Assembly: GCA_964583795.1 (NCBI GenBank)
Contig: CAZOWX010000001.1
Location: 30,569-94,568 of the forward strand
Origin: an uncultured Pseudomonadales bacterium
GTDB taxonomy: Bacteria > Patescibacteriota > Microgenomatia > UBA1400 > PJMF01
DNA length: 64,000 nucleotides
Reading direction: 5' to 3'
Under the pieces are notes generated by a model that saw nothing but the letters and a program-made list of their open reading frames with translations, searched no databases and was not told the DNA's origin. The number at the start of each line of letters is the position of its first letter. Position 1 is the first letter of the stretch. Shown here one piece after another: positions 25,297 to 57,173 of the stretch. A program made the translations under genes and the position numbers.

Positions 25297-25306
25297 ATGT
25301 TGGTAA

Positions 25307-26846: not shown

Positions 26847-26858
26847 TGATTGATTGTA

Positions 26859-29950: not shown

Positions 29951-31474
29951 ATGGGTAATCCCAAAATAAAGCCACAATCACTCGAGAAAATAAACTTCTT
30001 ACTTGGACTTGTTATTGTGCTACTGATTGCAATAGGTGTCAGAATCCCTCAACTCAACAGCTCTTTTTGGCTGGACGAAGCTGCTCAAGCCCTCGAGAGT
30101 ATTCGTCCGTTTTCTCAGCAACTTTTGATCGACCATGATTTCCAACCCCCACTGATGCATATTTTGGTTCATCTCTTTACATTAGCCAACAGCTCTGAGT
30201 GGTGGTTACGTCTGGTATCACTCATCAGTGGATTGGGAACAATTATTGCCACTTTTGCGCTTACAAAGCGTATTGCTAACACAAAAGTCGCGGTACTCAC
30301 CACATTATTTCTGACAATCAACTCGTTTCATGTTTTTTACTCACAGGAATTACGCCCCTACGCATTGACTGGGTTATTTGTCGCAACTGGTTGGTATTTG
30401 GTTGTCAGGATCGCAGAGTATCAAACTTTTCATCCCAAATTACTAATTTTGCTGGTTCTCAATAGCATAGCCGGTATGTATAGCACCTACTTATTTCCTT
30501 TTGCATTCCTAGGACAGTTGCTTTTTCTGATGTCACGACGCAATACCAAAGCTATTGCTCAAGCCTTGATCTCTGGACTGGTAACCACTCTAGCGTTTTT
30601 ACCCTGGATTCCTTTTTTATTCGGACAAATGAAAGTCGGCAGAGCACTACAACAAAGTACTCCTGCATGGCAGGCTGCAGTAGGGACACCCCAGCTCAAA
30701 GCACTGCAACTGGTTGTGGGAAAGTTTGTTTTTGGAGTCATTGACTTAGAAGTCGATGTTCTTTTCGTCTTTACCACCCTGATCATCTTGGGCTTAACTG
30801 CATTTCTACTTCATCAGCTTCACCGAAAAATTGGTATTACCACTCAGCTGATCATCGGCGGGTGGTTCGTACTTCCAATATTTATCATTTGGATATTTTC
30901 CTTTTTCCTACCCATAATTCAACCGAAACGAGTACTGTTTGCACTGCCTGCTTTTGAACTCATTTTCGCTTTAGTAATTGTGTATGGTTGGCAATGGAAA
31001 AAAACAAAAATTGCCGCAATGGTATTACTCATTTTGTTGACAGCCTCGCATCTTTTTGGTACTTTTGCGTACTATTTCAATCCCAAATATCAACGGGAAG
31101 ACTGGAAGAGCATTATTACTCAGATTGATACCAATTTTTCTGCGAGCAATACTATCGTGGTTTTTCGATTTGATCACCCCTTTTCACCATGGGATTGGTA
31201 TCACCATCAATCATTTTCGAGTGTCGCGACAGGAACAGCCACAAAAACAAGTGTCGAGCAAGTGCCTGATTCAATTTCAGCGGTACTCGATTATCAGAAC
31301 GTGATTGTGTTTGACTACCTCGCAGATCTTACCGACCCAAATCACACTGTCGAACAGTATTTAACCCAGTATAATTTTCAAGCAGGACAACTTTTTGTTG
31401 ATCCCAATATTGGTTTTGTTCGAGTTTACTCGAAAGGTGGCAGCTTTGCTCTCAACACTAAACGTCACTATTGA
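29951..31474 (+). CDS. GT-C membrane glycosyltransferase, PMT_2/ArnT-like
   Basis: The loop-1 motif is WLDEAAQALESI. The protein is polytopic. A TTG at 29891 is an alternative upstream start. Confidence 0.65.
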   Translation: MGNPKIKPQSLEKINFLLGLVIVLLIAIGVRIPQLNSSFWLDEAAQALESIRPFSQQLLIDHDFQPPLMHILVHLFTLANSSEWWLRLVSLISGLGTIIATFALTKRIANTKVAVLTTLFLTINSFHVFYSQELRPYALTGLFVATGWYLVVRIAEYQTFHPKLLILLVLNSIAGMYSTYLFPFAFLGQLLFLMSRRNTKAIAQALISGLVTTLAFLPWIPFLFGQMKVGRALQQSTPAWQAAVGTPQLKALQLVVGKFVFGVIDLEVDVLFVFTTLIILGLTAFLLHQLHRKIGITTQLIIGGWFVLPIFIIWIFSFFLPIIQPKRVLFALPAFELIFALVIVYGWQWKKTKIAAMVLLILLTASHLFGTFAYYFNPKYQREDWKSIITQIDTNFSASNTIVVFRFDHPFSPWDWYHHQSFSSVATGTATKTSVEQVPDSISAVLDYQNVIVFDYLADLTDPNHTVEQYLTQYNFQAGQLFVDPNIGFVRVYSKGGSFALNTKRHY

Positions 31475-32570
31475 TATTTCTCCAATCGTGTATCGACGAG
31501 GAGTATCGCTCTACACCACAAATCTTATTGAAGCACTGCTGAGACAGGATTCTGTGAACGTCTCTGTTTTTGGCAGCTCATTGCGACAAACACCACTGTT
31601 ACAAAAATTTGTTCGAGAACATTCAAAATTAAAGCGCTCAAAACTGCTGCCATTCCCTCCGAGCATTTGGCCGCATCTTTGGTATACCCTGCACTGGCCT
31701 CAGATTGAACTAATGACAACAAAGACTGATGTGTTTCACGCTTGGGAAGAGCTTATTCCGCCAACTCAAAAAACTCCAGTGGTCGCTACCATTCATGATT
31801 TAGCTATTTTAAAATTTCCAGAAACCGCACATCCCAGTACTCTGGCTAAACATACAGCAGCATGGGATCAGTTGAAAAAAACCGACTCACACGTGATTGC
31901 GGTCAGTCAGGCGACCAAAAAAGACGTCATTGAACTGCTACATTTTAAACCGGAAAAAGTGCATTTGGTTTATGAGGCTTTACCACAAGAACATCAACAA
32001 GAAGTGAGTTCAACTGATCAACAAAAAATTTTACAAAACCATGGCCTTCCATCGAGCTATATTTTGTTTGTCGGAGCACTCGAACCACGAAAGAATATTT
32101 CTAACCTCATCAAAGCTTGGCAGCCACTCCAAAATGATGTTGGACTCGTGATTGCCGGCGCACAACAATGGGGAGTTGAGCTCGATCAATCAGTCAAAAA
32201 CTTATTCTTTTTAGGCAGAGTTGGCAATAAAACATTGACGACTCTTTTCCAACATGCAAGTGTGTTTGCCTACCCTTCGCTCTACGAAGGATTTGGTCTT
32301 CCCATTCTTGAAGCTTTTTCGTATGGCGTTGCAGTTCTAACCTCAAACAATAGCGCCATGTCCGAAATAAGTGGCAACGCTGCCGTTTTGATTGATCCTA
32401 GAGAAGTTGACAGTATTCATCACGGATTAGTCCGTTTACTCAACGAAAATAGTGCCCAGCGCGAGTATCGACGTAAAGCCATGAAACTACAATTGCAGTT
32501 ATTCAATTGGGATACTACAGCACAAAAAACAGTAAAAGTTTATCAAAAGGCCGTCATTGATCGTACATAA
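31446..32570 (+). CDS. Glycosyltransferase family 4
   Basis: YPSLYEGFGLPILEAFSYGVAVLTSNNSAMSEI is the GT4 motif. The start was inferred as TTG 31446 with an AAGGTGG RBS 5 nt upstream; it overlaps the upstream GT-C gene end. Confidence 0.7.
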   Translation: MLSTLNVTIDISPIVYRRGVSLYTTNLIEALLRQDSVNVSVFGSSLRQTPLLQKFVREHSKLKRSKLLPFPPSIWPHLWYTLHWPQIELMTTKTDVFHAWEELIPPTQKTPVVATIHDLAILKFPETAHPSTLAKHTAAWDQLKKTDSHVIAVSQATKKDVIELLHFKPEKVHLVYEALPQEHQQEVSSTDQQKILQNHGLPSSYILFVGALEPRKNISNLIKAWQPLQNDVGLVIAGAQQWGVELDQSVKNLFFLGRVGNKTLTTLFQHASVFAYPSLYEGFGLPILEAFSYGVAVLTSNNSAMSEISGNAAVLIDPREVDSIHHGLVRLLNENSAQREYRRKAMKLQLQLFNWDTTAQKTVKVYQKAVIDRT

Positions 32571-32590
32571 CAACTACCGCAACCTTCAAC

Positions 32591-33841
32591 ATGAGTGAGC
32601 AAACACAATCCGCAACCATACTTCATATCGGAATCGACGCGAACGAGGCGAACATCGACTCTCGAGTGGGTAGTAATGTTTATGCGTTTAAGCTCCTGGA
32701 AGCACTCGAGAAGCTTACTCGCGATGATCATACTGTCCAGTTCACTTTATTTTTAACTGAATCAGCAAAACCTGGAATGCCGCTAGAGCGTCAGGGATGG
32801 AAATACATGTTGGTAACACCAAAGCGTTTTGCGACGCAGTGGGGATTATCACTGGCTTTATTTCGCTTGAGAAAACAAATTCAGCTCTTCTTTAGTCCTG
32901 GACATTACGCCCCTCGCTTGTGCCCAATCCCATATATTAGTAGTGTGATGGACTTGGCGTTTTTATACTTTCCTCAACAATTCAAACAAAGTGACCTTTG
33001 GCAACTTCGTCTTTGGACACAGTACTCAGTGAAAAATGCCAAACGCATCGTAAGCATCAGCGAGTTTACCAAACAGGATGTTTCGAAAAAGTATCGAATC
33101 GCACCTGAAAAAATTTCTGTTCTATACCCCGCAATTAATACTCAACAACCGCGTAGAGAAAATCAAAACTCTCGGCAAATAACGTTTCATAAATATCACA
33201 TCAGCGAACCGTACATTTTATACGTGGGAACAATTCAACCCAGAAAAAATTTGATTCGACTCGTGGAAGCCTTTGAACATCTGAAACTCAAGTACCAAAG
33301 CGAAGTTGCCAAATCACAGCAAAATCAACCTCCCAAATCAAAACGTAATCGAAAACAAAAAATGTCTTCGACAAATCATCCTTATCAAGATTTAAAACTG
33401 GTCATTGCAGGAAAAGAAGGTTGGCTATCCGCTCCCATCATGCAACGAATTAAAAAAAGTGTGTATCACCAAGATATTATCGTTACCGGATATGTCACTG
33501 AAGAAGAAAAAAGCATTCTTTATAACCACGCCAAATGTAGCATCTTAATTGGCTTACACGAAGGATTTGGGATGCCTGCACTGGAGTCACTACAATTTAA
33601 AGTTATTCCTGTCGTTTCAAATACTACCAGTCTACCGGAAGTGGTTGGCGAAGCGGGTATTACAGTGTCACCCTACAACTCAGTGCAAGTTATGAAGGGG
33701 ATTGATAAAGCGCTACACTTAACGTTAAAACAAAGAAAAGAGTTTGAGCAAACAGCATCTCGTCAGTTAGCTCAATTTAGTTGGGACGAAAGCGCCAAAA
33801 AACTTCTTGAATTATTTCAAAACACTCTACAAAAATCATAA
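32591..33841 (+). CDS. Glycosyltransferase family 4
   Basis: LHIGIDANEANIDSRVGSNVY is a GT4 N-terminus. GLHEGFGMPALESLQFKVIPVVSNTTSLPEV is the GT4 motif. A lysine-rich insert is present. Confidence 0.75.
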   Translation: MSEQTQSATILHIGIDANEANIDSRVGSNVYAFKLLEALEKLTRDDHTVQFTLFLTESAKPGMPLERQGWKYMLVTPKRFATQWGLSLALFRLRKQIQLFFSPGHYAPRLCPIPYISSVMDLAFLYFPQQFKQSDLWQLRLWTQYSVKNAKRIVSISEFTKQDVSKKYRIAPEKISVLYPAINTQQPRRENQNSRQITFHKYHISEPYILYVGTIQPRKNLIRLVEAFEHLKLKYQSEVAKSQQNQPPKSKRNRKQKMSSTNHPYQDLKLVIAGKEGWLSAPIMQRIKKSVYHQDIIVTGYVTEEEKSILYNHAKCSILIGLHEGFGMPALESLQFKVIPVVSNTTSLPEVVGEAGITVSPYNSVQVMKGIDKALHLTLKQRKEFEQTASRQLAQFSWDESAKKLLELFQNTLQKS

Positions 33842-33867
33842 CTACGTTCATCGAAGTTGATTCAAGT

Positions 33868-34377
33868 ATGCCAGTTTCCACTCCCACATTTTTAGCGATC
33901 GATCCTGGATACGACCGCTGCGGTTGGGCCGTATTGAATACAAAGAACAAGAGCACCGCTGTCGCTTACGGCTGCATCCAAACTGAGATAAAAACAACGT
34001 TTTTTGAACGAATGAAAAAAATTGAGGTTTTGTTGCAACACATTATTGAGCAGTATCAACCCACAGAACTTGCAATCGAAACTTTATTTTTTGCGAAAAA
34101 TCAAAAAACTGCACTTCGAGTCGCCGAGCTTCGTGGGGCAATTACTTTAGTATGTCTGCAACACGCAATGACTATTTTTGAGTACCGACCAATAGACGTA
34201 AAACTCGGAGCAACGGGAAATGGCCGAGCAGATAAAAAAGCTGTTGAAAAAATGATTCGACTACAACTTCAGATACCTGCCTCAGAAAAGCTGATTGACG
34301 ACACACTCGATGCGCTTGCAGTTGGCGTTACCCATCAAACTTCCAGAAAACTTCACCTGATGAAACACCAAGAGTGA
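33868..34377 (+). CDS. ruvC: Holliday junction resolvase RuvC
   Basis: FLAIDPGYDRCGWAVL, with the catalytic D in the RNase-H-like fold. Length is 169 aa. Confidence 0.9.
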   Translation: MPVSTPTFLAIDPGYDRCGWAVLNTKNKSTAVAYGCIQTEIKTTFFERMKKIEVLLQHIIEQYQPTELAIETLFFAKNQKTALRVAELRGAITLVCLQHAMTIFEYRPIDVKLGATGNGRADKKAVEKMIRLQLQIPASEKLIDDTLDALAVGVTHQTSRKLHLMKHQE

Positions 34378-34443
34378 GTCTTCACGAGCCGACTCAAAAC
34401 CAGTATAGTAAAAGCGAATAAAAAGCGAAAAACAACACGTTCT

Positions 34444-35007
34444 ATGATTGGTCGTTTGACAGGTATACCGCAACTGTATGGCAATGAGTTCATCATTGAT
34501 GTCAACGGAGTAGGGTACAGCGTGTTTGTGGGAACCGCTACATTAGCTCAAGTTATGCATCAGACTCAAGTTCAGTTGTGCATTTATACACACGTCCGAG
34601 AAGATACTATTTCGCTATATGGCTTTTTAAGCCCACAACATAAAACTCTATTCGAACATTTGTTAGCAGTGTCGGGTATAGGACCCAAATCAGCTTTAGC
34701 AATTGCTGATCGGGGAGTAGAGCCAATCACTCAAGCAATTCAACAAGCTGATATCGGTTTTTTCACACAAATTCCTCGAGTTGGCAAAAAACTCGCTCAA
34801 AAAATTATTATTGATTTGCGCTCAAAACTTGGCGCGCTCAAAGAGCTTGATCTCACTGCAGAGTCACAACAATACACCGATGTAGTGACGGCTTTAGAAA
34901 ATCTGGGTTTTGCCAAAAGTGAAATCTATCAAGCAATACAAAGAGTAGACATTGAGCAATTGAGTCTCTCTGATGCAATTAAAGCCACCATGAAACAATT
35001 GTCATGA
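34444..35007 (+). CDS. ruvA: Holliday junction DNA helicase RuvA
   Basis: MIGRLTGIPQ…VNGVGYSVFV…VSGIGPKSALAI carries the helix-hairpin-helix motifs. Confidence 0.9.
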   Translation: MIGRLTGIPQLYGNEFIIDVNGVGYSVFVGTATLAQVMHQTQVQLCIYTHVREDTISLYGFLSPQHKTLFEHLLAVSGIGPKSALAIADRGVEPITQAIQQADIGFFTQIPRVGKKLAQKIIIDLRSKLGALKELDLTAESQQYTDVVTALENLGFAKSEIYQAIQRVDIEQLSLSDAIKATMKQLS

Positions 35008-36008
35008 ATACACCAATACCTACTGTCACTACTGCTGAAGATGAATTGCTTTTTACTTCTCTGCGAGCAAAAGATTGGAGTGAATTTTGGGGACAGGAAA
35101 CAATAAAGCAATCGCTTCAAATTTCCCTTACAGCTGCGAAACAGCGTGAGGAAGTGATGGATCATACACTGTTTTATGGACCCCCAGGCCTTGGGAAAAC
35201 AACACTATCACATCTAATAGCAAAAGAGATGGGAAGCAACATTCGAATTACTTCTGGGACAGCACTCACAAAACCGGGAGATTTAGCTGCGATTTTAACC
35301 AATCTCGAAAAGGGCGATATTCTTTTTATTGACGAAATCCATCGGTTACCAAAAACCGTTGAAGAAACGCTCTACCCAGCAATGGAGGACTTTGCTTTGG
35401 ACATCGTGATTGGGAAAGGCCCTTCTGCTCGAAGCGTTCGACTCGATGTTCCTCAATTCACTTTAGTTGGAGCAACTACACGGTTTGGTGCGCTGGCAGG
35501 TCCATTTCGCGATCGGTTTGGATTGATTCATCGTCTTGAGTACTACAACCCCAAACAGTTGCAAACCATTATCATCAAAGCAGCAACCAAACTCGACGTT
35601 AAGATTGAACCACAAGCTGCTTTGGAAATAGGACAAAGAGCTCGCGGAACCCCTCGTATCGCTTTGAAATTATTGAAACGAGTGCGCGACTACGCACAAA
35701 TTATGGCCGATGGAATCGTCTCGTTTTCGGAGGTAACGAAAGCCCTCGATATGTTTGCGATTGATGCCTATGGACTTGACCATTCGGACAGGCGGTTACT
35801 GCAACAACTCATTGATCATCATGGTGGGGGCCCCGTTGGACTCACTACCATTGCTGCCAGTCTGAGTGAAGACACCATTACGATCGAAGAAGTACTCGAG
35901 CCGTACTTACTACAAATTGGTTTCCTCAAACGCACACCAAGGGGACGTGTAGTAACAGAAAGAGCGTATCTGCACTTGAAAGTAAAATACCCACATGTTG
36001 ATACATAG
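35004..36008 (+). CDS. ruvB: Holliday junction DNA helicase RuvB
   Basis: Walker A is GPPGLGKTTLSHLIA and Walker B is LFIDEIHRL. ATGA overlap with ruvA. Confidence 0.9.
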   Translation: MNTPIPTVTTAEDELLFTSLRAKDWSEFWGQETIKQSLQISLTAAKQREEVMDHTLFYGPPGLGKTTLSHLIAKEMGSNIRITSGTALTKPGDLAAILTNLEKGDILFIDEIHRLPKTVEETLYPAMEDFALDIVIGKGPSARSVRLDVPQFTLVGATTRFGALAGPFRDRFGLIHRLEYYNPKQLQTIIIKAATKLDVKIEPQAALEIGQRARGTPRIALKLLKRVRDYAQIMADGIVSFSEVTKALDMFAIDAYGLDHSDRRLLQQLIDHHGGGPVGLTTIAASLSEDTITIEEVLEPYLLQIGFLKRTPRGRVVTERAYLHLKVKYPHVDT

Positions 36009-36029
36009 TAAATTACGGTAAGTTGTTAT

Positions 36030-36112
36030 GTTGTTGAGTTGTTACGTTGTTACAACACATACAATTGCACAACAACACAACAACCAACTACTCAACAACT
36101 CCCTATAGGACA
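36030..36112. repeat. Imperfect long palindrome built from GTTGTT / AACAAC microsatellite-like units downstream of ruvB
   Basis: gttgttgagttgttacgttgttacaacac…cacaacaacacaacaaccaactactcaacaac. GTTGTTGAGT at ~36036 is the reverse complement of ACTCAACAAC at ~36098. Confidence 0.6.
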
Positions 36113-36172
36113 CCAATGGATCTGCTACTGCATCTGTTTTTTGTGCTAGAATGAACATACGCAACAAAGCCT

Positions 36173-36766
36173 ATGAGTACTCGACCTTTACACCAAAAAA
36201 TCATGACTCGGATTGATGCGATTATTCTCGAGTTTGTAACTGGATTTTTATGGTGGGGGGTTGGGATTGTTCCTCTGCATCATGTCCGGCGATTGTTTTA
36301 CCGATTGTTCGGCATGCGGATTGGTTCTGGATCGAGTATCCACATGATGGCTCGTATCTATGACCCTCGCTATATTCATATTGGTGAAGACACTATCATT
36401 GGAGAAAAAGCCACACTCGATGGGCGAAAGCAGTTACCAAACTCAAAAGGTGGTCTTCGCATCGGTAACCACGTCGATATTGCTTCTGAAGTAATGATCT
36501 GGACCAGTCAACACGATATCTCTTCACCAGACTTTCATCCAGTTGAAGCGAAAGTCGTGATCGAAGATTATGTGTTCATCGGACCTCGCGCTATTATTTT
36601 GCCTGGGGTGACCATAGGTAGAGGTGCAATCATTGCTGCTGGAGCAGTGGTCACTAAAAACGTGCCACCACTAGCTATCATGGGGGGTGTTCCCGCAAAA
36701 GAGATCGGTAAGCGTCCAGTTACAGAACTAAACTATCGCCTTGGTCGATCACGCTGGTTTCAATGA
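36173..36766 (+). CDS. Hexapeptide-repeat (left-handed β-helix) acetyltransferase, sugar O-/N-acetyltransferase-like
   Basis: Repeated [LIV]G-x4 hexapeptides: IGNHVDIASEVMI, IEDYVFIGPRAIILPGVTIGRGAIIAAGAVV. Confidence 0.75.
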   Translation: MSTRPLHQKIMTRIDAIILEFVTGFLWWGVGIVPLHHVRRLFYRLFGMRIGSGSSIHMMARIYDPRYIHIGEDTIIGEKATLDGRKQLPNSKGGLRIGNHVDIASEVMIWTSQHDISSPDFHPVEAKVVIEDYVFIGPRAIILPGVTIGRGAIIAAGAVVTKNVPPLAIMGGVPAKEIGKRPVTELNYRLGRSRWFQ

Positions 36767-37254
36767 AAAAAAAACAAGAAAAATCCTATCGATCAGTACT
36801 GTATTACATAAAAGACTTGCGGTGGCACATATTGTTTTTTTGCAGCGCTTTCATTGGAGTTTTCCCAACTCAGGTACTTATTTTTGTTGGTCTACCGTCT
36901 GTTTTTTTCCTTCTACCAGCATTTCTGTACTTAGTTTTTAACCTGTATAGAGTAACAACTCAACCCAGAAAACGTCATCTGATTATCCTTTTACTTAGTT
37001 TTTTTGTTTTCTATTGCTATTTTCAGTTAACCACAATCTCGGAAATTCAACGAATTTGCACTACTCAAGCAGTTAACTCAATTGATACACCATCTAATTC
37101 ACAACTTAATGAAGTTACAAAAATTCAATATGTTTTGGAATACCGTCAGTGTAAAACTCACTACATGCCGCTCATGAAAAAAGTCTTGATCCATTTTGAG
37201 TACTACTCGATGTGGCAAACACTGATGAGAAAAAACATTACCAGCACTCAATGA
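36763..37254 (+). CDS. Small membrane protein, unknown function
   Basis: ATGA overlap at both ends. It has 3–4 hydrophobic helices and no recognisable motif. Confidence 0.4.
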   Translation: MKKKQEKSYRSVLYYIKDLRWHILFFCSAFIGVFPTQVLIFVGLPSVFFLLPAFLYLVFNLYRVTTQPRKRHLIILLLSFFVFYCYFQLTTISEIQRICTTQAVNSIDTPSNSQLNEVTKIQYVLEYRQCKTHYMPLMKKVLIHFEYYSMWQTLMRKNITSTQ

Positions 37255-38225
37255 ATCAACGTCCACTCCTGTCCACTATCATTGTTTCGTACAACACGGC
37301 TGATTTGACCTGTCATTGTGTTTCTTCTGTTCTCAACGAGTATAAGCACAGCAATATTGATGGAGAAATTATTGTTGTTGATAACCACTCGTCGGATGAC
37401 TCAGTGAAAAAACTGAAACGCTTATTTCATGATCACATTCGACTAGTTGAAAATAAAGAAAATGTCGGTTTTGCAGCCGGCAATAATAAAGGCATTCGAG
37501 CGTCTACAGGCAAATATATATTTCTACTCAATTCTGATACGGTGATTCATCCTGGTGATATTAAACAGCTTCTGAATGTTTTTCAGCATCATCCAGATAA
37601 TGACACAGAGTCGCTGGAACATACACACCTGATTGACAGAGTTGGAATTGTTAGTGGTCGACTTGAAAATATTGATGGGACATTGCAAAAGCAAGGTGGG
37701 TCGCTACCCAATCTTTGGGTCATTTGCTTATGGTGGTTACTCCCACTACCTGCACGTCTCGCCAAATTCCCACCTCAGTGGAGCTTACATATCGAACAAG
37801 ATGATTTTTTTGAGCGTGAACAGTTGATGGGTTGGGTCGGAGGAACGGCAATGTTGCTCCGTCGTGAGATGATCGATGAAATTGGACTGCTCGATGAGGG
37901 TATTTTCATGTATGCTGAAGACATAGAGTACTGCCTCAGAGCTCAAAAACATCACTGGGACACTGTTTACATTCCGAGTACGAATATTACTCATTTTGGC
38001 AGTGCGAGTAGCTCGAGTGAGTCCGCTCGTTTCGGTGAAATTGTTGGACTTTTCTACGTATCGCAAAAACACTTCCCAGCCTGGAAAGCTGGAGCTGTTC
38101 GCAAGATTTTGCGCCTTGGCTGCTTACTTCGGTTGGTATTATTTGGTATAATATTGGGAAATGAAAAAAAGAAAAAAAGCTACCAAAAAGCCTTTATTCA
38201 ACTCTCACCCGCTCGCACGTACTGA
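37251..38225 (+). CDS. Glycosyltransferase family 2
   Basis: LSTIIVSYNTADLT…IIVVDNHSSDDS…FLLNSDTVI…MYAEDIEYCLRA. Start taken at ATG 37251 (ATGA overlap). Confidence 0.8.
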   Translation: MNQRPLLSTIIVSYNTADLTCHCVSSVLNEYKHSNIDGEIIVVDNHSSDDSVKKLKRLFHDHIRLVENKENVGFAAGNNKGIRASTGKYIFLLNSDTVIHPGDIKQLLNVFQHHPDNDTESLEHTHLIDRVGIVSGRLENIDGTLQKQGGSLPNLWVICLWWLLPLPARLAKFPPQWSLHIEQDDFFEREQLMGWVGGTAMLLRREMIDEIGLLDEGIFMYAEDIEYCLRAQKHHWDTVYIPSTNITHFGSASSSSESARFGEIVGLFYVSQKHFPAWKAGAVRKILRLGCLLRLVLFGIILGNEKKKKSYQKAFIQLSPARTY

Positions 38226-39993
38226 ACGTAGCGATGAGAGCTTTAAAACAAAATTAGGTGCTTCCAAATCAGAGCAAAAATCGTTTATTTGGCGTTTTGT
38301 TGAATGGCTCGATGATAACCTACTATTGCTCATCGCTGGTTTCTTGTTTGCCTTTATTCCCCTGTACCCAAAATTACCACTAGCGGATATTATCCCTGGA
38401 TATATCGTTCGCTTACGACTTGAAGATGTTTTTGTGGTGATTGCTGTGATCATTTATGGAATTCAGATAATCCGAAAAAAAGCCCAGTGGAAAACACCAT
38501 TTACCTGGATTATTGTTGGCTACGCAATTACAGGAATACTTTCAACTCTCTCAGCTGTCTTTATTATAAAAACCGTTCCATTTCAACTCTTACACATTGG
38601 GAAAACATTACTTCATTACTTCCGCTACCTCGAATACTTTTCGCTCTTTTTTATCGCCTATAGCGCTGTAACTTCGCGCCGTGATTTGCAAAAAATCTTA
38701 TTCATTTTTACTCTTACCGTTGTTTTAATTACCGCTTATGGGTATGGTCAAAAATATTTTTATTGGCCGCTGTACTCGACGATGAATCGTGAATTTAGCA
38801 AAGGTCAACGTCTATACTTGACTGAACATGCCCGGGTCCAGTCAACTTTTGGGGGACATTACGACCTGGGTGGATATCTCGCGGTAGCGCTGCCAATGTT
38901 ATTGGCTTTATTTTATACTGTGCGCCAGTGGAAATGGAGAGTTCCCACACTACTGAGTTTCATTGCTGGATTGTGGCTTCTCATCATGAGTGCCTCCAGA
39001 GCTTCATTTGCCGGATTTGTTGCTGGATCTGGATTAACTATTCTACTTCTTGGTTTACAAAGACAAAGTTGGAAAAAGAAAATTTGGTGGACCTTTAGCA
39101 GAGGTATTGCCACCATGTTTCTGATCAGTTACATGTTTATCACCTATGGAGACTCAATATATGAGCGCTTCATTCAGGTGCTTCAGCCTTATCCTCAAGT
39201 TATGAGGATCTACGAGGACATTAATGATACTCGACAAAACCTCATTACCTTCAATTTTTCGAACATTGCAAAGCGATTTTGGCCTGCAGACATCAAACCT
39301 CCTAAAGATGGTTATGCTGTTACTGCCGAAGAGCAAGAAAACACTCACGTACTCGTAACTTCTGACGAAGTCCCCACAGCTACTCGGCCAGCAGACGTTT
39401 ACGTTGAAGTCCCTGATATTATCACCGTTTCCACAACTAGTGCAGAAGGTGTCACGTCGACGACAACTTCCACCAAAGAACGGACATACTCCTATAACGC
39501 ACTCAAATACGGACTTTCAATGGCAATTCGACTTGATACTCTCTGGCCTCAAGCAATCAAAGGTTTCCAAAGAAATCCACTCGTTGGTTCTGGATATGCG
39601 ACGCTAACCAAATCGAGCATTGAACAGTTCACTGAAGCAGAAAGCACCGATAACAATTTCTTGCGCACTTTGGGAGAAACGGGACTCCTCGGGTTTATGA
39701 CTTTTTATGGAACAATTGTCATTAGTTTCTTCATAGCCGGGAAAGTCATTCTCACATCAGATTCATTATTTAACAAAGGTGTTGCTGTTGGTCTGATTTC
39801 GGCTGGTGTAGCACTACTCATCAACGCCGTATACATCGATGTCTACGCTTCCTCCAAAGTAGCATTTTCTTACTGGGCACTCACTGGTTTTGTCTTGGCA
39901 TACTTCATCAAAGAACTGAAAGTTAACCCCATGAGGCCTCAGATACCTGATCGCAATGTGAAAGAGGCCGTGTTACCAAAGTCGAACCAATAA
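38161..39993 (+). CDS. O-antigen ligase/polymerase-like (Wzy_C domain) membrane protein with a C-terminal extension
   Basis: It is polytopic. LIMSASRASFAGFVAGSGL matches the Wzy_C (WaaL/Wzy) SRxxxxxxxxG motif. A Ser/Thr-rich soluble segment lies at 39.3–39.5 kb. The start is uncertain because of a 65-nt overlap with the upstream GT2. Confidence 0.55.
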   Translation: MKKRKKATKKPLFNSHPLARTERSDESFKTKLGASKSEQKSFIWRFVEWLDDNLLLLIAGFLFAFIPLYPKLPLADIIPGYIVRLRLEDVFVVIAVIIYGIQIIRKKAQWKTPFTWIIVGYAITGILSTLSAVFIIKTVPFQLLHIGKTLLHYFRYLEYFSLFFIAYSAVTSRRDLQKILFIFTLTVVLITAYGYGQKYFYWPLYSTMNREFSKGQRLYLTEHARVQSTFGGHYDLGGYLAVALPMLLALFYTVRQWKWRVPTLLSFIAGLWLLIMSASRASFAGFVAGSGLTILLLGLQRQSWKKKIWWTFSRGIATMFLISYMFITYGDSIYERFIQVLQPYPQVMRIYEDINDTRQNLITFNFSNIAKRFWPADIKPPKDGYAVTAEEQENTHVLVTSDEVPTATRPADVYVEVPDIITVSTTSAEGVTSTTTSTKERTYSYNALKYGLSMAIRLDTLWPQAIKGFQRNPLVGSGYATLTKSSIEQFTEAESTDNNFLRTLGETGLLGFMTFYGTIVISFFIAGKVILTSDSLFNKGVAVGLISAGVALLINAVYIDVYASSKVAFSYWALTGFVLAYFIKELKVNPMRPQIPDRNVKEAVLPKSNQ

Positions 39994-41528
39994 TGAAAAG
40001 AATGATCGCTGCCCATTTTTTTTCGTCCAAAAAACTTCTAGTCGTTATTTGGTTTTTAGCAATTGCGCTTCGCATGCAAAATTTTTTGCTCCCGCCAATT
40101 GATGCTCACCCAATGCGCCAAACAGATACCGAAAGTGTGGCGTACTATTTTGCAACAGTTGATTATAGTCCACTTCGTCCACAAGCAAGTCTGATCCGCC
40201 CGCAAACAAATATTCATGGCTATTTTTTTCTTGAATTTCCAGCGTATGAGTACCTCATTGGGACCATGTATTGGATCTTTGGCACATCATATATCGTTGC
40301 TAGATTGATAAACGTACTGCTCTTTTCAGTGAGTTTTGCATTGTTATTCAAAACTATTGAGAAGTTATTCTCAGAAAAACTGGCAATCTGGACAGTGTTG
40401 CTATTTAGCTTCACTCCTTCATCAGTTTTCTTTTGGGGACATGCCATTCATCCTGACATCTTCGCCATTACCACTGTTGTAAGCTCACTGTATGTATTAC
40501 AAAGCAACAAAAGAAATTTATTCACCCTCTCTGTGGCAGGAGTACTTTTTGCACTTTCAGTAGGAACACGCCCATTTATTCTCATGGCGTTACCAAGCCT
40601 GCTAAGCGTCCTCTTCTTTAAAAAAGCGAAGTGGTGGGAGTATCTGGTTTTCAGTGTCCTTTCAGTCAGTATCTACGGGTTTTGGAGCTGGTGGCAACAG
40701 CTTTCCCCTGAGGCAGATGCAGCATGGCAACAATGGACTCTTCAGGGTAGAGAAGCGCTCTTCTCCTTCGCAGGCTGGAAACATCTCATTTGGCGCAATA
40801 CCAGTGGTGAAGTCTTGGGCAGAGTCGCTACAGTGTTGGCAGCAGTGGGCTTGGGAAGTTTACTGATCAAATCACGATCCGTGTTTCAACTGTTCAAGCA
40901 ATTTTCACTCCAAAAAATTATCAAACTTGTAGCAACTGTCGATACGATTTCTGCAGATACACGCTTACTTGTGTTTTGTGTCCTTTGGTTGTTGGCTGTA
41001 CCGATGTATTGGTACATTGCACCAGCCGGAAATGCAGCCCATCAATACTACGCCAATGTATTTCTCTTGCCATTGATGCTCCTCGCAGCACAAGGCTGTT
41101 TCTTTTTGAGCCATCGTAGACACAACGCACCTTGGCACTTTGGGATGAGCTTGGTCTTAGTACTTGCACTTATCTACAACACTGTTCGAACAAGCGCCTA
41201 CTTTTTTCACAATCTTGTTCCAGCACATCATCTTGATATCGCACAGGAGATTGAAATGGTCATTCCAAAAGGCCAAAAAATTGTGTATTTGGCAGTCAAT
41301 AACTCGGTGCCATTCTCGCTGGCACATCGTCAAGGTTGGATGCTTGGAGGCGCACCAACTGACGTTAATAACACTGCAACAGACGTCCTGGCTATGAAAC
41401 AGTATGGGGCGCAATACGCGGTTTTCGCGTTTGACAATAACGATTTTCCAAAAGAAGAACAAAAACTTTTGGAGCAGCAATCGGAAGTCATTTATCGATC
41501 GAAGGTTCTCACTGTGTTTAAACTCTAA
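39993..41528 (+). CDS. GT-C membrane glycosyltransferase, ArnT/PMT-like
   Basis: About 11 TM segments. The N-terminal loop has RQTDTESVAYYFA and FLEFPAYEYLIG. Confidence 0.6.
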   Translation: MKRMIAAHFFSSKKLLVVIWFLAIALRMQNFLLPPIDAHPMRQTDTESVAYYFATVDYSPLRPQASLIRPQTNIHGYFFLEFPAYEYLIGTMYWIFGTSYIVARLINVLLFSVSFALLFKTIEKLFSEKLAIWTVLLFSFTPSSVFFWGHAIHPDIFAITTVVSSLYVLQSNKRNLFTLSVAGVLFALSVGTRPFILMALPSLLSVLFFKKAKWWEYLVFSVLSVSIYGFWSWWQQLSPEADAAWQQWTLQGREALFSFAGWKHLIWRNTSGEVLGRVATVLAAVGLGSLLIKSRSVFQLFKQFSLQKIIKLVATVDTISADTRLLVFCVLWLLAVPMYWYIAPAGNAAHQYYANVFLLPLMLLAAQGCFFLSHRRHNAPWHFGMSLVLVLALIYNTVRTSAYFFHNLVPAHHLDIAQEIEMVIPKGQKIVYLAVNNSVPFSLAHRQGWMLGGAPTDVNNTATDVLAMKQYGAQYAVFAFDNNDFPKEEQKLLEQQSEVIYRSKVLTVFKL

Positions 41529-42831: not shown

Positions 42832-42897
42832 TCACCGATGATGCCACACAAGCTCTGTAAAGACAAGTCACATGAGAAGCCAATTCAGCAGTCGAAG

Positions 42898-44158: not shown

Positions 44159-44248
44159 ATTGATTTCTCTCTAGAGCTAATCGATTTCACCAATTGTCTT
44201 TTTTTGAACAGCAGGTCATTGCTGTATAAGTACTCAACGCTCTTTTGT

Positions 44249-46246: not shown

Positions 46247-46252
46247 AGATCG

Positions 46253-49047: not shown

Positions 49048-49470
49048 ATGAAAAAATTTTTTAGAAAAATTTCCACCCATACTTCATTACTTGTCGGAGG
49101 CCCATATTCGTTTAGTTTAGCAGTACTCATTATTGTTGTCTGGTGGTTCACTGGACCCGTCTTTGATTTTTCAGATACTTGGCAACTAATGATTAATACT
49201 GGCACTACAATTGTCACCTTTCTGATGGTGTTTTTAATCCAAAATACACAAAATCGCGATACCAAAGCCATTCAAATTAAGCTCGATGAGTTACTCAGAG
49301 CAGTAAAAGGAGCCAGAAACACATTGGTCGATATTGAAGATGTCGATGACGCTCAACTTGATGAATTGCAGATGGAATTTAAAGCTCTGAGAGAACATTA
49401 TGAGCTGCGTTTGAAAAAAATAGAAGAGATGAGACTGGCTCAAAATTTGAAGAAGCATAATATTGGGTAA
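49048..49470 (+). CDS. Small membrane protein resembling the low-affinity iron permease (Fet4-like, PF04120) family
   Basis: Two TM helices plus a coiled C-terminus. FLMVFLIQNTQNRDTKAIQIKLDELLRA matches the family as recollected. Confidence 0.45.
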   Translation: MKKFFRKISTHTSLLVGGPYSFSLAVLIIVVWWFTGPVFDFSDTWQLMINTGTTIVTFLMVFLIQNTQNRDTKAIQIKLDELLRAVKGARNTLVDIEDVDDAQLDELQMEFKALREHYELRLKKIEEMRLAQNLKKHNIG

Positions 49471-49549
49471 TTTTTGTGTTCATTTATTTTTCGAAGAACT
49501 TGATACAATAGAGCCTTTAAATCAAGTTAACTTGATCAGAGCCACAACT

Positions 49550-50767
49550 ATGAAAATTTTAATGCTTACTCCGTATCTGCCATATCCTTTGCTTTCTGGA
49601 GGACAAATCAGAACATACAACTTGCTCAAAAAGCTTGCTCTTCAGCATCAAGTAACGCTGTTCGCACTGATTAAGGAAGAAAGTGAACGGCAATTTATAC
49701 CTGAACTGGAAAAGTACTGCCAAAAAGTACGTGTATTCAAGCGTTCCAACAAACCATTTACTCTTCGAAACATCTTCAAAACCGGCTTTTCTCCCTACCC
49801 ATTTTTAGTTATTCGAAACTTAACTGATGAAACCAAGCAAGCGGTAGTACAAGAGCTAAAAGAAGAAACGTATGACCTCATTCATGCTGAAACGTTTTAC
49901 ATGATGCCCAATATCCCACGTACTCAGATTCCGATTTTATTAGTCGAACAGACAATCGAGTATCTTGGATACGAAAGCTTTGCCGGCACAACGCGATTTT
50001 TCTTTCTTCGACCACTCTTAAAAATTGACATTGCTAAAATCAGGCGATGGGAAGAGCACTATTGGCATAGCTGTACCAAGTTAATAACGATGAGTGATGA
50101 AGACCGGGAGTTTATTAATCAAACTTTACATGATCCAAACAAGATTGAAGTCGTTTCAAATGGAGTTGATACTCAGTGGTTTGCTCAAAAGAAAAAAAAG
50201 TTGCCGAAAGATCCAACAATTTTATCTGTAGGCACCTTTAACTGGCTACCCAATGTCGAAGCAGTCAAGTTTTTAGTCAATAATATTTGGCCAATCGTCA
50301 AAACCGCTTTACCTTCAGCGAAGTTATGGATCGTAGGCAACGCACCAACACGAGAAGTGTTCGCCTTTCAACAAAAAGATTCTTCCATTACAGTCACCGG
50401 AGGCATTCCTGATATCCGCGACGCGTTTTCAGGTGCGCATGTTTTACTTGCACCGGTGTTTAGCGGAAAGGGGACACGGTACAAAATTCTTGAGGCAATG
50501 GCTTCGCGCACACCGATCGTGGCAACACCAACGGCAGTTGAAGGACTCAGAGTAGAAAACGGAAAACACGTCTTAGTTGGTAAAAATGCAAAGGAGCTGG
50601 CAAGCTTAACATTGCGATTACTCAGTGACGAGAAGCTCCAACAAACGTTGGCTTCAAATGGGAAACAGTTTGTCGACCAAAATTTTGATTGGCTACAAAT
50701 TTCCCAAAAGCTCGATAAAATTTACCGGGCATTAGGAAAAGAGGTCCATGAGAAAACGACACGTTGA
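49550..50767 (+). CDS. Glycosyltransferase family 4
   Basis: Start at ATG 49550 (MKILMLTPYLPYPLLSGGQIRTYNLL). GKGTRYKILEAMASRTPIVATPTAVEGL is the GT4 motif. Confidence 0.8.
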   Translation: MKILMLTPYLPYPLLSGGQIRTYNLLKKLALQHQVTLFALIKEESERQFIPELEKYCQKVRVFKRSNKPFTLRNIFKTGFSPYPFLVIRNLTDETKQAVVQELKEETYDLIHAETFYMMPNIPRTQIPILLVEQTIEYLGYESFAGTTRFFFLRPLLKIDIAKIRRWEEHYWHSCTKLITMSDEDREFINQTLHDPNKIEVVSNGVDTQWFAQKKKKLPKDPTILSVGTFNWLPNVEAVKFLVNNIWPIVKTALPSAKLWIVGNAPTREVFAFQQKDSSITVTGGIPDIRDAFSGAHVLLAPVFSGKGTRYKILEAMASRTPIVATPTAVEGLRVENGKHVLVGKNAKELASLTLRLLSDEKLQQTLASNGKQFVDQNFDWLQISQKLDKIYRALGKEVHEKTTR

Positions 50768-51680
50768 TCTATCAATCATTATTCTCAACTACAACACAGC
50801 CAGCTGGCTCGAGAATGCACTACGTTCTATAAAACGCTATCCACTTACTCGTCACTCTTTTGAGGTAATCGTGGTTGACAATCATAGCTCAGACCACTCT
50901 GTAGCCATGGTTCAGGCAACATTCCCTTCAGTAACACTGATTGAAGCACCAGAAAATGGTGGCTTTGCCAGGGGTAATAACATTGGAATAAAGGTAGCCA
51001 ATGGGAAGTACATCATGTTGCTTAACTCCGATGCTGAGTTTAACTCAGACACAAATCTCGATGCGTGTCTTGAGTATTTTGAACAACATGAACAGGTCGG
51101 GGTCATGACTCCACAAATAGTTTTGGCTGATGGAGGAGTTGACCTTGCTTGCCATCGTGGGGAACCAACTCCTTGGGCGGCAATTACATACTTTTTGGGC
51201 TTTGAGAAAAGGTTCCCTGAATCTCGATTGTTTGGGCAATATCATCAGACATGGAAAGATTTCAAGGTGTTACATACGATTGATGCTTGCAGTGGAGCAG
51301 CAATGCTTGTTCGAGCTCAAGCATTACAAAAAGTAGGGGACTTAGATGAACAATTTTTTATGTATGCGGAAGACCTGGATTGGTGTCGACGTTTTCGAGA
51401 ACACAAGTACCAAATTATTTATTTTCCACAATCTCGAGTTGTTCACCATAAATATAAATCCGGTTTAGCAAAACGAAAAGACATACTTGAACCTAACAAT
51501 TTTTTACAGATACCTGGTTTTTCTCACAAAAAAGATCTCGCTTCAAGTACTCGCCATCATTTTTTTCAGACAATGAAACAGTACTATAGTAAGCATTACC
51601 AAAAAAGTTCACCAATTCAAACACTCATTATTCATCGAATTATTGACCTGCTACACTGGTGGAAACAAACGAGAAGTTAA
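50748..51680 (+). CDS. Glycosyltransferase family 2 (rhamnosyltransferase-like)
   Basis: LSIIILNYNTASWL…VIVVDNHSSDHS…LLNSDAEF…MYAEDLDWCRR. Confidence 0.8.
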   Translation: MRKRHVDLSIIILNYNTASWLENALRSIKRYPLTRHSFEVIVVDNHSSDHSVAMVQATFPSVTLIEAPENGGFARGNNIGIKVANGKYIMLLNSDAEFNSDTNLDACLEYFEQHEQVGVMTPQIVLADGGVDLACHRGEPTPWAAITYFLGFEKRFPESRLFGQYHQTWKDFKVLHTIDACSGAAMLVRAQALQKVGDLDEQFFMYAEDLDWCRRFREHKYQIIYFPQSRVVHHKYKSGLAKRKDILEPNNFLQIPGFSHKKDLASSTRHHFFQTMKQYYSKHYQKSSPIQTLIIHRIIDLLHWWKQTRS

Positions 51681-51801
51681 ATTAGTATATTCCTCACTTT
51701 CAGCTGCTATTTGCGTTTCTCCATAAGTTCGGCTAAGATACCCACAGTATTTATTTGACTTGTCGTGCAAAAGACATCGTACAAAAAAATGAAAGGCAGC
51801 T

Positions 51802-52248
51802 ATGGCACATGTTCATTATTTAAAGTTCAAGATTAATCAACTCTTGCAAGAAAAAATGATTCTCATCTTGGAAACTATTGCAATTTTCATTCTCGCTTTA
51901 TTTGTGTCGATCTTTTTACCACAACTTTTATTCCAATTTCTTTACTCAAAACAACAACTCACTGCTGAGCCAGCTTTGCTTCAGTATATTCCTGTCATTA
52001 GTTTTTCAGTAGCAATTCTTTACTTCCTTTATGCAACAATTAGTGTTGTCCTGAAGAAATTAAAAGTCGTTCAACTACAAAAAGAACTCACAATGCTTAT
52101 TTCTGACGGGGCTGTGGACTGCATGTGCGAACACAATGATGAAGATTTAGACTCAAATGATGAAATAGTCAAACCAGTTATGAGTAAGAGTAGTACTGCT
52201 TCAAAGAAAAAGGCGGTTGTTAAAAAGAAAACTGGTAAGAAAGCATAA
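51802..52248 (+). CDS. Hypothetical membrane protein with a lysine-rich C-terminal tail
   Basis: Two or three TM helices. The C-terminal SKSSTASKKKAVVKKKTGKKA is K-rich. A GAAAGG RBS is present. Confidence 0.4.
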   Translation: MAHVHYLKFKINQLLQEKMILILETIAIFILALFVSIFLPQLLFQFLYSKQQLTAEPALLQYIPVISFSVAILYFLYATISVVLKKLKVVQLQKELTMLISDGAVDCMCEHNDEDLDSNDEIVKPVMSKSSTASKKKAVVKKKTGKKA

Positions 52249-52269
52249 AAATTGTCTCAATGTCATTTC

Positions 52270-52297
52270 AACGCCCCGCTAAGCCGGGGCGTTTTTT
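52270..52297 (+). terminator. Rho-independent terminator (AACGCCCCG / CGGGGCGTT stem, loop CTAAGC, T6)
   Basis: A GC-rich 9-bp stem followed by a T-run. It lies between the hypothetical gene and the next GT4. Confidence 0.75.
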
Positions 52298-52311
52298 GTT
52301 ATACTACTTTC

Positions 52312-53460: not shown

Positions 53461-54095
53461 AGCACCTTTTCATTTTTGTTTTTTGTTTTCTTTTTTTGAT
53501 TTGGTTATCTTTCACAAATACGTTGCTCATCTCTCATCGTTGGGTGTTTTCACTCGCATACCCGACATTGATGTATCCAGAAAAAATCTCGTTTGAGCAA
53601 TCACAGAAAGCATCAAATATCGTTCGTCTTGTGCATTCTGCTGAACAATTTTCGTATCTGTCAGTAGAGGAAAATCGGCACATGAATGACGTCCAACTTT
53701 TATTTCAAACGACATCGCATCTTTGGGTACTTATTTTAGTTGGTCTACTATGCTTTTATTTTTTGCTTACACATTTTTTCGTTAACGTATCCAGTCAAAT
53801 GATACTAAAGTTACTGATGAACACAACCGTGCTCTTCATTGGATTTATAGGAGTATCAACACTTTTTTTTTGGAATTCTTCATTCATTCTCTTTCACCGG
53901 CTGTTGTTTGATCCAGGCACTTGGAGCTTCCCAACAGATTCAACCTTGATTCAGCTGTTCCCCGAAACTTTTTGGCAACACATGTTTACTGTATTGCTGA
54001 TAATGCCAGTAATTGAAGTCTTGACTCTCAAGCAATGTGCAAAGTATCTGCGACGTACCCACAACTTCAGCAGCAATGGTACAATACCACAGTGA
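53457..54095 (+). CDS. Integral membrane protein, unknown function
   Basis: ATGA overlap with upstream GT4. Four or five TM helices. Contains a T9 homopolymer. Confidence 0.4.
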   Translation: MKHLFIFVFCFLFLIWLSFTNTLLISHRWVFSLAYPTLMYPEKISFEQSQKASNIVRLVHSAEQFSYLSVEENRHMNDVQLLFQTTSHLWVLILVGLLCFYFLLTHFFVNVSSQMILKLLMNTTVLFIGFIGVSTLFFWNSSFILFHRLLFDPGTWSFPTDSTLIQLFPETFWQHMFTVLLIMPVIEVLTLKQCAKYLRRTHNFSSNGTIPQ

Positions 54096-56354: not shown

Positions 56355-56424
56355 CGCCATAGCCAACAAACATGAAGAACATCTTTAAAAAAGTACTTTC
56401 TACTTACTACTAACTACTTGTTCT

Positions 56425-57048: not shown

Positions 57049-57173
57049 CGTAAACTTGACAGCAATGGAGTATCTTTGAGATAGTGGTATCTTGCAATAT
57101 TTAGTAGTCTTGTAGAAAAAGAACCCAATATAAATTCCGCTACAGTCCTGGTTATAAAATATCTTTGACATTT

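Follow-up and report, generated by a model that had tools for sequence, protein, structure and literature searches.

What does a protein related to O-antigen ligases do at the surface of a Patescibacterium? Patescibacteria are monoderm, mostly uncultured and attached to other cells, and their surface chemistry is almost uncharacterised. The question is raised by a gene in a 64,000-nucleotide stretch of contig CAZOWX010000001.1 (positions 30,569–94,568 of the forward strand; GenBank assembly GCA_964583795.1; GTDB lineage Patescibacteriota, Microgenomatia, UBA1400, PJMF01), which we refer to as the window. An open reading frame (ORF) at 38161–39993 on the plus strand, starting with ATG, encodes a 610-residue protein with a Wzy_C domain. 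A first-pass annotation had suggested that this protein might be a PglL-like protein O-oligosaccharyltransferase (O-OTase) and had noted that its ORF overlaps the preceding glycosyltransferase (GT) gene. Our analysis showed that it is a member of a Patescibacteria-specific (Microgenomates-type) family in the WaaL/Wzy/SEDS clan. It very probably serves as the outer-face undecaprenyl-diphosphate (Und-PP)-glycan transferase of the surrounding gene cluster; that it is the polymerase of a conserved Patescibacterial surface polysaccharide is a reading for which we see about equal grounds for and against.

A Patescibacteria-specific Wzy_C family

The protein matches the Pfam Wzy_C profile (PF04932) with 34.9 bits against a gathering cut-off of 31.7 (E = 1.6e-8), which agrees with the Wzy_C/WaaL/PglL superfamily proposed in the first-pass annotation. 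The two peptides quoted there, SRASFAGFVAG (residues 279–289, nt 38995–39027) and VTSTTTSTKERTYSYNALKY (residues 431–450, nt 39451–39510), are both present in the translated ORF. The profile is matched in two stretches, the better of which places residues 453–515 on profile positions 80–148, and the domain is therefore split by an insertion. Wzy_C was also matched in 27 of 27 family members (best E 5.6e-14) and was the only profile reported for them, with no match to FTSW_RODA_SPOVE; no NCBIfam model matched the 610-residue protein.

A family search over 5.8 billion proteins retrieved more than 2,100 relatives. Two near-identical copies aside, the top 120 share 47–68% identity with the window protein over ~90% of its length. 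Those that are named come from metagenome-assembled genomes (MAGs) of Patescibacteria, Pacebacteria, and Doudnabacteria, and are annotated as “hypothetical” or “O-antigen ligase family protein”. STMNREFS and EA[ED]STDNN, which are the best-conserved peptides of the family, occur in 311 genomes of a one-genome-per-species scan, the titles of which name Pacebacteria, Microgenomates, Woesebacteria, Doudnabacteria, and Patescibacteria; across these species-level genomes the family shows 45–66% identity. In an exhaustive search of 1.84 billion representatives of 50% clusters, 242 clusters were found at E ≤ 1e-30 and 775 at E ≤ 1e-3. For many contigs with the typical Patescibacteria cluster (loci L012–L090), the deposited name is “uncultured Pseudomonadales bacterium”; for a few it is Flavobacteriaceae, Methylococcaceae, or Limisphaerales. 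Such records are probably mislabelled MAGs.

A Wzy_C family specific to the candidate phyla radiation (CPR) has been noticed earlier, but without analysis. The supplement of Meheust et al (2019) contains fam00073, a 12-transmembrane (TM) Wzy_C family with no assigned function from 1657 CPR versus 122 non-CPR genomes; PMT_2 and DUF4012 families are likewise listed there as enriched in CPR. Neither a function nor residues or gene context are given for fam00073, which, by its description, plausibly contains the window protein or its fused relatives. Literature searches combining Patescibacteria, CPR, or Saccharibacteria with O-antigen ligase or Wzy found nothing specific.

About 40% of the distant family representatives (P0128–P0270) are 1000–1270 residues long and consist of a Wzy_C module fused to a further domain. 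In 36 clusters, the module is followed by a 4-TM segment and a C-terminal extension of ~600 residues; Pfam Metallophos was found in one of four members scanned, and metallophosphoesterase-like motifs were recognised by eye in one tail. Another 24 clusters carry a different polytopic domain with no assigned family. In two clusters (P0140 and P0174), the partner is a PMT_2 domain homologous to the product of the gene directly downstream in the window (E 2e-15), and these were the only matches when the C-terminal extensions of the ~1000-residue relatives were compared with all window proteins. The two fusions support a functional coupling of the Wzy_C enzyme with its neighbouring GT-C.

Fold and active-site residues

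An AlphaFold2 model built from a 118-sequence alignment (predicted local distance difference test score (pLDDT) 82.8, predicted template-modelling score (pTM) 0.83) has 12 TM helices, cytoplasmic N- and C-termini, and short conserved outside loops. A region of 170 residues (330–498) lies outside between TM9 and TM10, so that the model shows the polytopic fold with a long outside loop near the C-terminus by which CAZy clan GT-C1 (class GT-C_B) is recognised. All of the most conserved segments sit on the outer face, namely loop 200–236 (YSTMNREFSKG.RLYLTEHARVQSTFGGHYD; consensus frequency 0.93) and segment 453–515 (0.85). The best fold match in the Protein Data Bank (PDB) is WaaL (7tpg_B; E 6.3e-5, TM-score 0.63 on the target), followed by RodA (8tj3_B). 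A family-profile search of all PDB sequences found nothing, so the relation to solved structures is one of fold and motifs only.

In WaaL, residues R215, R288, and H338 are functionally important and have the PglL counterparts R224, R298, and H349 (Schulz et al, 2013, PMC3643930). Alignments with the family profile place R280, R457, and D497 of the window protein at these positions, and D497 also at D262 of RodA, on which the RodA reaction model is centred (Table 1). Residue conservation was counted in 118 close relatives and in a distant set of ~150 cluster representatives including fused forms. Position 280 is Arg in all 118 close relatives and Arg or Lys in 150 distant representatives; R457 is invariant (118/118 and 143/143 aligned distant sequences), and D497 is Asp in 118/118 and 140/141, respectively. 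A further acidic residue, E506, does not vary either, whether in the close relatives or in the distant set (at least 140 representatives, fused forms included). The best local alignment to Escherichia coli RodA pairs FTEAESTD497NNFLRTLGETGLLG with FLPERHTD262FIFAVLAEELGLVG. Neither of two E. coli polymerases aligned with the family in hhalign: WzyE gave E 0.44 over a 26-residue TM stretch only, which is no real similarity, and O16 WbbH gave no meaningful match.

Clan GT-C1 comprises SEDS proteins, O-antigen ligases (O-Lig), and five inverting Wzy-type polymerase families. At the position of the O-Lig His, SEDS proteins are reported to have their essential Asp and the inverting polymerases a conserved Asp/Glu; sequence diversity has been argued to follow that of donor and acceptor and to be lowest in SEDS and enterobacterial common antigen (ECA) polymerases (Meitil et al, 2024, PMC10920833). 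The family described here combines the ligase arginines with the polymerase-type acidic residue and very low diversity.

The insertion that splits the Wzy_C domain had been described in the first-pass annotation as a Ser/Thr-rich periplasmic insert with a low-complexity stretch. Its extracytoplasmic position is borne out by the model, and the local excess is real: 14 of the 25 residues at 420–444 are Ser or Thr, a count reached by none of 2000 composition shuffles. The excess is not a family trait, since the Ser/Thr fraction in the hairpin columns is 0.52 here versus a median of 0.26 in 117 relatives. Nor is the stretch a low-complexity linker. It forms part of a predicted β-hairpin with a block-mean pLDDT of ~86–89 and is thus structured in the model. 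The length of the insertion is nearly fixed, at 102–122 residues in 118 relatives, its residues 401–452 are conserved like the TM core (0.66 versus 0.65), and P381, D402, P405, P410, D412, G430, R441, and S444 are invariant. The insert is a conserved structural module of fixed length; what is peculiar to this species is the TSTTTST run in one of its strands.

A conserved glycan gene cluster

Comparison of 89 loci from ~80 species revealed a conserved gene order: GT4–GT4–ruvC–ruvA–ruvB–hexapeptide acetyltransferase–GT2–Wzy_C–(PMT_2 GT-C)–GT4–GT2–(148-residue membrane ORF)–GT4–GT4. GT2 lies directly upstream of Wzy_C in 85 of the 86 loci in which this flank is present, and the downstream neighbour is a GT-C (at least 45 loci) or a GT4. 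The order of the upstream part is kept in most loci. The odd placement of ruvC–ruvA–ruvB (33868–36008 in the window) between two GT4 genes and the acetyltransferase is very stable, being found in ~70 of the 89. In distant relatives, the downstream set (GT4c–GT2b–orf148–GT4d–GT4e) directly follows Wzy_C/GT-C; in the window, it is displaced by a block at 41530–48903. This downstream part also holds a GDP-mannose pyrophosphorylase, a small Bac_transf priming transferase (56425–57048), and a DUF4012 protein, and the conserved cluster of the window has five GT4 and two GT2 genes besides the priming transferase. The link to a lipid-linked glycan pathway that the first-pass annotation had drawn is thereby upheld, with the priming transferase, the seven GT4/GT2 genes, GT-C genes, and Wzx-like flippases all in the window.

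The nearest solved structures of the constant GT2 partner are soluble GT-A enzymes, not GtrB or DPMS; it is a Leloir GT-A enzyme and not a polyprenyl-phosphate sugar synthase. Its true start is likely ATG 37251 rather than GTG 37212, because the N-termini of its homologues begin at that Met.

Possible polymerisation and its alternatives

The donor would be an Und-PP-linked oligosaccharide made by the surrounding conserved cluster, which would provide the Bac_transf priming enzyme, five GT4 and two GT2 enzymes, an O-acetyltransferase, and the GDP-mannose supply. R280 and R457 would hold the diphosphate, as in WaaL, and activation of the acceptor hydroxyl would fall to Asp497 in its SEDS-like “TD” motif. 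The resulting surface polysaccharide may be decorated by the adjacent GT-C. An acidic residue at the position of D497 typifies polymerases (SEDS and inverting Wzy-type), and His is found there in ligases and O-OTases. This residue, the uniformity of the family, and its fixed gene cluster together suggest a single invariable donor and a single invariable acceptor, which makes polymerisation the most likely reaction. A fuller version, in which the enzyme is a Microgenomates-type polymerase of a lineage-wide “common antigen”, with a 15-gene ruvCAB-centred cluster, a hybrid of ligase arginines and SEDS Asp with a unique 110-residue module, and an overprinted leaderless N-terminus, is tentative as a whole.

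Several points weigh against polymerisation. The conserved cluster contains no Wzz or other polysaccharide co-polymerase (PCP) and no Wzx, and the two Wzx-like genes of the window (17785–18975 and 20594–21880) belong to a separate cluster. A set of seven GTs with a priming enzyme is also consistent with en bloc transfer of one large glycan. The invariant H233 in the GGHYD motif on the outer face could replace the ligase histidine, and the distinction of His from Asp/Glu is a bioinformatic generalisation, not a tested law. The WaaL and RodA alignments have weak statistics (E 0.02–0.06) and are motif-level, yet they are mutually consistent. The comparison with O-OTases covered PglL, PglS, and PilO. 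The first-pass annotation had set its O-OTase proposal against a polymerase with a dedicated Wzz partner; no Wzz, LCP protein, or ABC exporter was detected among the ORFs scanned in the window.

The DUF4012 protein (57165–59216; 683 residues) follows directly on the priming transferase and has a single N-terminal TM helix and a large outside domain. DUF4012 is reported to be strongly CPR-enriched (1300 genomes versus 8) and is also found in Bifidobacterium exopolysaccharide clusters. The protein could be the missing partner of the Wzy_C enzyme, in export, chain length, or attachment; we rejected it as a classical PCP, its single TM helix being unlike Wzz.

Among the alternatives, a terminal ligase would transfer a finished Und-PP glycan once to a conserved non-protein acceptor, as a monoderm counterpart of WaaL. 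Candidate acceptors would be a membrane glycolipid, peptidoglycan, or another wall polymer. WaaL is the best fold match, both of its arginines are kept, and a conserved acceptor would explain the low diversity equally well. The lack of Wzz and Wzx within the conserved cluster fits a single transfer, no LCP-family ligase was seen in the window, and O-Lig members of Gram-positive bacteria have been speculated to attach capsule to peptidoglycan (PMC10920833). However, the family has Asp throughout where ligases have their histidine, the motif around D497 is closer to SEDS polymerases than to WaaL, and no acceptor can be identified, so that we regard a ligase as unlikely, though worth keeping in view.

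The O-OTase suggested in the first-pass annotation would transfer the glycan from Und-PP to Ser/Thr residues on proteins of the cell surface, for example pilins or S-layer proteins. Both S-layers and abundant pili are found on CPR cells, and families of sortases and pili are enriched in CPR. The Wzy_C superfamily does contain PglL, PilO, and PglS, the conserved eight-enzyme glycan pathway resembles a general glycosylation system, and Asp could act as the base, with the invariant His233 also on the outer face. Yet PglL_A (PF15864), a model built to tell PglL from WaaL, was not matched by the window protein at E ≤ 0.01 or by any of the 27 family members (the window protein and 26 relatives) at E ≤ 0.1; this absence is not decisive, as PilO also lacks the PglL motifs (PMC3643930). 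The equivalent of PglL H349 is an invariant Asp. PglL genes often adjoin the gene of their acceptor (PMC3643930), but no acceptor gene is adjacent in the 89 loci, where the neighbours are GT2, GT-C, and GT4. This family is also far less divergent than the known O-OTases. We are left with no positive evidence for an O-OTase, and the role is less likely, with a somewhat lower standing still than that of a ligase.

Start codon and overlap with GT2

The GT2 ORF ends at 38225, and its last 65 nt are shared with the Wzy_C ORF in a different frame, as the first-pass annotation had observed while leaving open whether the start was correct or the two genes were coupled. Between the upstream in-frame stop and TTG 38326, ATG 38161 is the only in-frame ATG, GTG, or TTG. 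The public gene call for an identical protein (P0001, 555 residues) starts at TTG 38326 and has no overlap, so the overlap depends on the choice of ATG 38161. Overlaps of 59–65 nt recur in loci L001, L002, L003, and L012, which represent four species at 52–66% protein identity, and there, too, a tail rich in Lys, Arg, and Ser follows the ATG inside GT2. Elsewhere in the family, the first Wzy_C ATG and the GT2 stop are only a few nucleotides apart. We assign the start to ATG 38161, and with it the overlap, with high confidence.

It is very improbable that the overlap is an ORF-calling artefact, with translation from TTG 38326 and residues 1–55 not made. Public calls of 555 residues exist for both the identical and a 95%-identical protein (P0001 and P0002), and the N-terminal tail is poorly conserved (mean consensus frequency 0.09) and predicted to be disordered, with a block-mean pLDDT of 43–66 over residues 1–40 and values below 50 at residues 8–24 and 26–29. 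The shorter product, however, would lose W49-L50-D51, which are at least 90% conserved, and half of TM1 (its first 14 residues, pLDDT ~95). In addition, no other in-frame start is available upstream of TTG 38326, and the ATG is kept in the four other species with the same upstream 11-mer and spacing. Similar basic tails are present in relatives P0003, P0006, P0007, P0009, P0011, P0015, and P0018.

The GT2 tail motif FG(T/I)I..(K/R)(K/R)..Y(Q/K)(E/K)A is conserved with or without the overlap. The GT2 frame is thus ancestral, and the Wzy_C extension was overprinted on it; the A-rich GT2 codons (GAA AAA AAG AAA AAA) automatically yield Lys and Arg in the other frame. Programmed frameshifting into a GT2–Wzy_C fusion protein, the form of coupling that the overlap might have implied, is rejected as extremely improbable. 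In its favour, a dnaX-type slippery heptamer A_AAA_AAG at 38165–38171 is in phase with the GT2 frame, a fusion would be topologically possible with the N-terminus of Wzy_C in the cytoplasm, and the gene pair is inseparable across loci. However, relative to GT2, Wzy_C is read in the +1 (equivalently −2) frame and not in −1; L001, L002, L003, and L012 do not keep the heptamer; and no such fusion was seen among the homologues, L041 and L090 even having a stop between the genes.

A promoter-like element inside GT2

Shortly before the Wzy_C ATG, the GT2 codons are constrained at the nucleotide level. In 26 species-level loci, the codons for F-G-(T/I)-(I/M) read TTTGGTA(C/T)AAT. Gly is encoded by GGT in 26 of 27 cases (background 0.34, p about 1e-11), Thr by ACA in 19 of 20 (0.26, p about 1e-10), and Ile by ATA in 6 of 7 (0.14, p about 4e-5). 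As a control, codon choice in invariant amino acid motifs of Wzy_C is scrambled across these loci, and the flanks of the 11-mer are unconserved. With its TGnTAnAAT pattern, the element is consistent with an extended −10 promoter that has no conserved −35 box. In most loci, the Wzy_C ATG follows 51–89 nt downstream of the 11-mer. In the sub-lineage of the window, the hexamer is a perfect TATAAT followed by exactly 8 nt and an invariant ATG, and TGGTATAAT-N8-ATG is invariant, with fixed spacing, in each of the five species that bear the overlap. In a second group of loci, TGnTATAAT-N10/11-ATG follows closely on the GT2 stop. Overall, TGNTATAAT was seen eleven times in 90 upstream regions against about one expected by a rough estimate, always 8–11 nt from an ATG.

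A scan with the sigma-70 consensus did not flag the TGGTATAAT site, because that scan requires a −35 box. No Shine–Dalgarno (SD) motif precedes ATG 38161; such motifs are rare in this genome, with SD-like sequences before ~10 of 56 ORFs. The pattern suggests that an internal promoter in the 3′ end of GT2 might drive Wzy_C, with a leaderless mRNA in the sub-lineage of the window, a proposal that we place a little short of an even call. Two observations weigh against it, namely that no −35 box is conserved and that, for a transcript to be strictly leaderless, 8 nt is a rather long spacing. If the promoter is active, the mRNA would probably begin at or within 2 nt of ATG 38161. The ATG would then have arisen at the 5′ end of the transcript, and leaderless translation would have turned the former 5′ leader into the basic cytoplasmic tail.

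Two further genes of the window, both on the minus strand and both with a −10-like hexamer 6 nt ahead of the ATG, are candidates for leaderless transcripts: greA at 29714, which encodes a 157-residue GreA (TGTATAAT-N6-ATG), and an NAD-dependent epimerase gene at 26846 (TGATACAAT-N6-ATG). Literature searches on leaderless mRNAs in Patescibacteria found nothing specific.

Other features of the window

Table 1. Features of the Wzy_C locus, in window coordinates.
Feature	Position	Strand	Description
Upstream part of the cluster: GT4, GT4, ruvC, ruvA, ruvB, WcaF-like hexapeptide acetyltransferase	31395..36766	+	Pfam, NCBIfam
GT2, Leloir GT-A type	37251..38225	+	Constant upstream partner; Pfam
TGGTATAAT, extended −10 promoter-like element	38144..38152	+	Within GT2 codons F-G-I-I; ends 8 nt before ATG 38161
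Dual-coding overlap	38161..38225	+	GT2 C-terminal tail NEKKKKSYQKAFIQLSPARTY / Wzy_C N-terminus MKKRKKATKKPLFNSHPLARTE
Lys/Arg/Ser-rich cytoplasmic N-terminal tail, residues 1–41	38161..38283	+	Lineage-specific
R280 (AGA), SASR motif	38998..39000	+	Aligns with E. coli WaaL R215 (hhalign, family profile)
Insertion of ~110 residues (341–452)	39181..39516	+	Start of the large outside loop; splits the Wzy_C domain
Predicted β-hairpin, residues 419–445, with TSTTTST run	39415..39495	+	Strands E419–426 and E432–439 in the model
R457 (CGA), AIRLD	39529..39531	+	Equivalent to E. coli WaaL R288 and PglL R298 (hhalign)
D497 (GAT) in FTEAESTDNNFLRTLGETGLLG	39649..39651	+	Position of WaaL H338, PglL H349, and RodA D262 (hhalign)
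PMT_2-type GT-C	39993..41528	+	Start and Wzy_C stop overlap by one base (TAATG)
Downstream part of the cluster: GT4, GT2, 148-residue membrane ORF, GT4, (Lit), GT4, GDP-mannose pyrophosphorylase, Bac_transf priming transferase, DUF4012	49463..59216	+	Pfam

The block that displaces the downstream part of the cluster (41530–48903) is on the minus strand and contains carbohydrate-storage genes: PGI, a BadF/BcrA-type ATPase, GH15, GH57, and a GT5-like glycogen synthase. The interruption is common to the closest relatives (L001–L003) and is not found in more distant loci. Directly upstream of GT2, and after the acetyltransferase gene, an ORF of 163 residues (36763–37254) with three hydrophobic segments has no Pfam match and no counterpart in other loci. 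Its stop is overlapped by the GT2 ATG 37251 by 4 nt, and its slot is held by an EamA-family transporter in L006 and L007. A gene of the Lit family (lipoprotein intramolecular transacylase; 53457–54095) is flanked by two GT4 genes of the conserved cluster; the other loci showed no counterpart in this place.

A second glycan cluster (16244–27704, minus strand) comprises a double GT2, two Wzx-like flippases, one of them weakly matched, a PMT_2 protein, a B12-binding radical SAM enzyme, two GT2 enzymes, a flavodoxin, an epimerase, and an RnfD-like protein; this cluster is probably variable. Four tandem polytopic paralogues of ~550 residues (3936–10517), which share 24–29% mutual identity and one of which matches PMT_2, are followed by an ORF of 961 residues (12392–15277) with ~17 hydrophobic segments and no Pfam match. 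In total, at least seven GT-C-like genes are present in the window, counting those at 19053, 29891, and 39993.

Implications

These results do not overturn current knowledge, and the family is still a worthwhile biochemical target. The cluster is conserved in order and sequence across hundreds of species and has a near-invariant enzyme of the Wzy_C fold at its centre, which makes it a good candidate for the source of a core envelope polymer in this lineage. R280, R457, and D497 are targets for biochemistry, and the glycan itself is a target for detection or enrichment. The switch from His to Asp means that the database name “O-antigen ligase family protein” is not readable as a function here. 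The promoter-like 11-mer in GT2 and the overlap together offer a clean, testable case of an N-terminal extension born by overprinting.

Comparison with known systems

WaaL (GT121, 7TPG) shares with the window protein its 12 TM helices, the large outside loop before the last three helices, the Wzy_C signature, and the two diphosphate-binding arginines (R215/R288, corresponding to R280/R457). In contrast, the catalytic His of WaaL (H338 in the E. coli and H313 in the Cm enzyme) is Asp here, the outside loop is ~100 residues longer, and the host, as a monoderm, would have no lipopolysaccharide (LPS) pathway; no LPS gene was seen within the 64-kb window. PglL, PglS, and PilO resemble the window protein in superfamily, in the Und-PP-glycan donor class, and in the conserved arginines. 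They differ from it in the PglL_A domain, the His in place of Asp, the adjacent acceptor gene, and a far lower family conservation.

SEDS proteins (RodA/FtsW, GT119) have the same F..E..TD..F......E.GL.G motif around their essential Asp and a similarly low sequence diversity. However, they contain ten TM helices instead of twelve, belong to FTSW_RODA_SPOVE, and act in division and elongation, whereas the window protein is encoded in a glycan cluster and its donor is presumably not lipid II. The inverting Wzy-type polymerases (GT125–GT129) likewise have one or two conserved arginines and an Asp/Glu at the position of the ligase His, and are clustered with a priming transferase and several GTs. 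They are extremely diverse and serotype-specific, in contrast to a family that is ~50% identical lineage-wide and for which no Wzz was found. The ECA polymerase WzyE (GT120) has no sequence relationship to the window protein, is a member of the retaining clan GT-C2, and has WzzE as its partner. In concept the two are nonetheless similar, WzyE being a highly conserved polymerase of a lineage-wide “common antigen” that is encoded in a conserved cluster.

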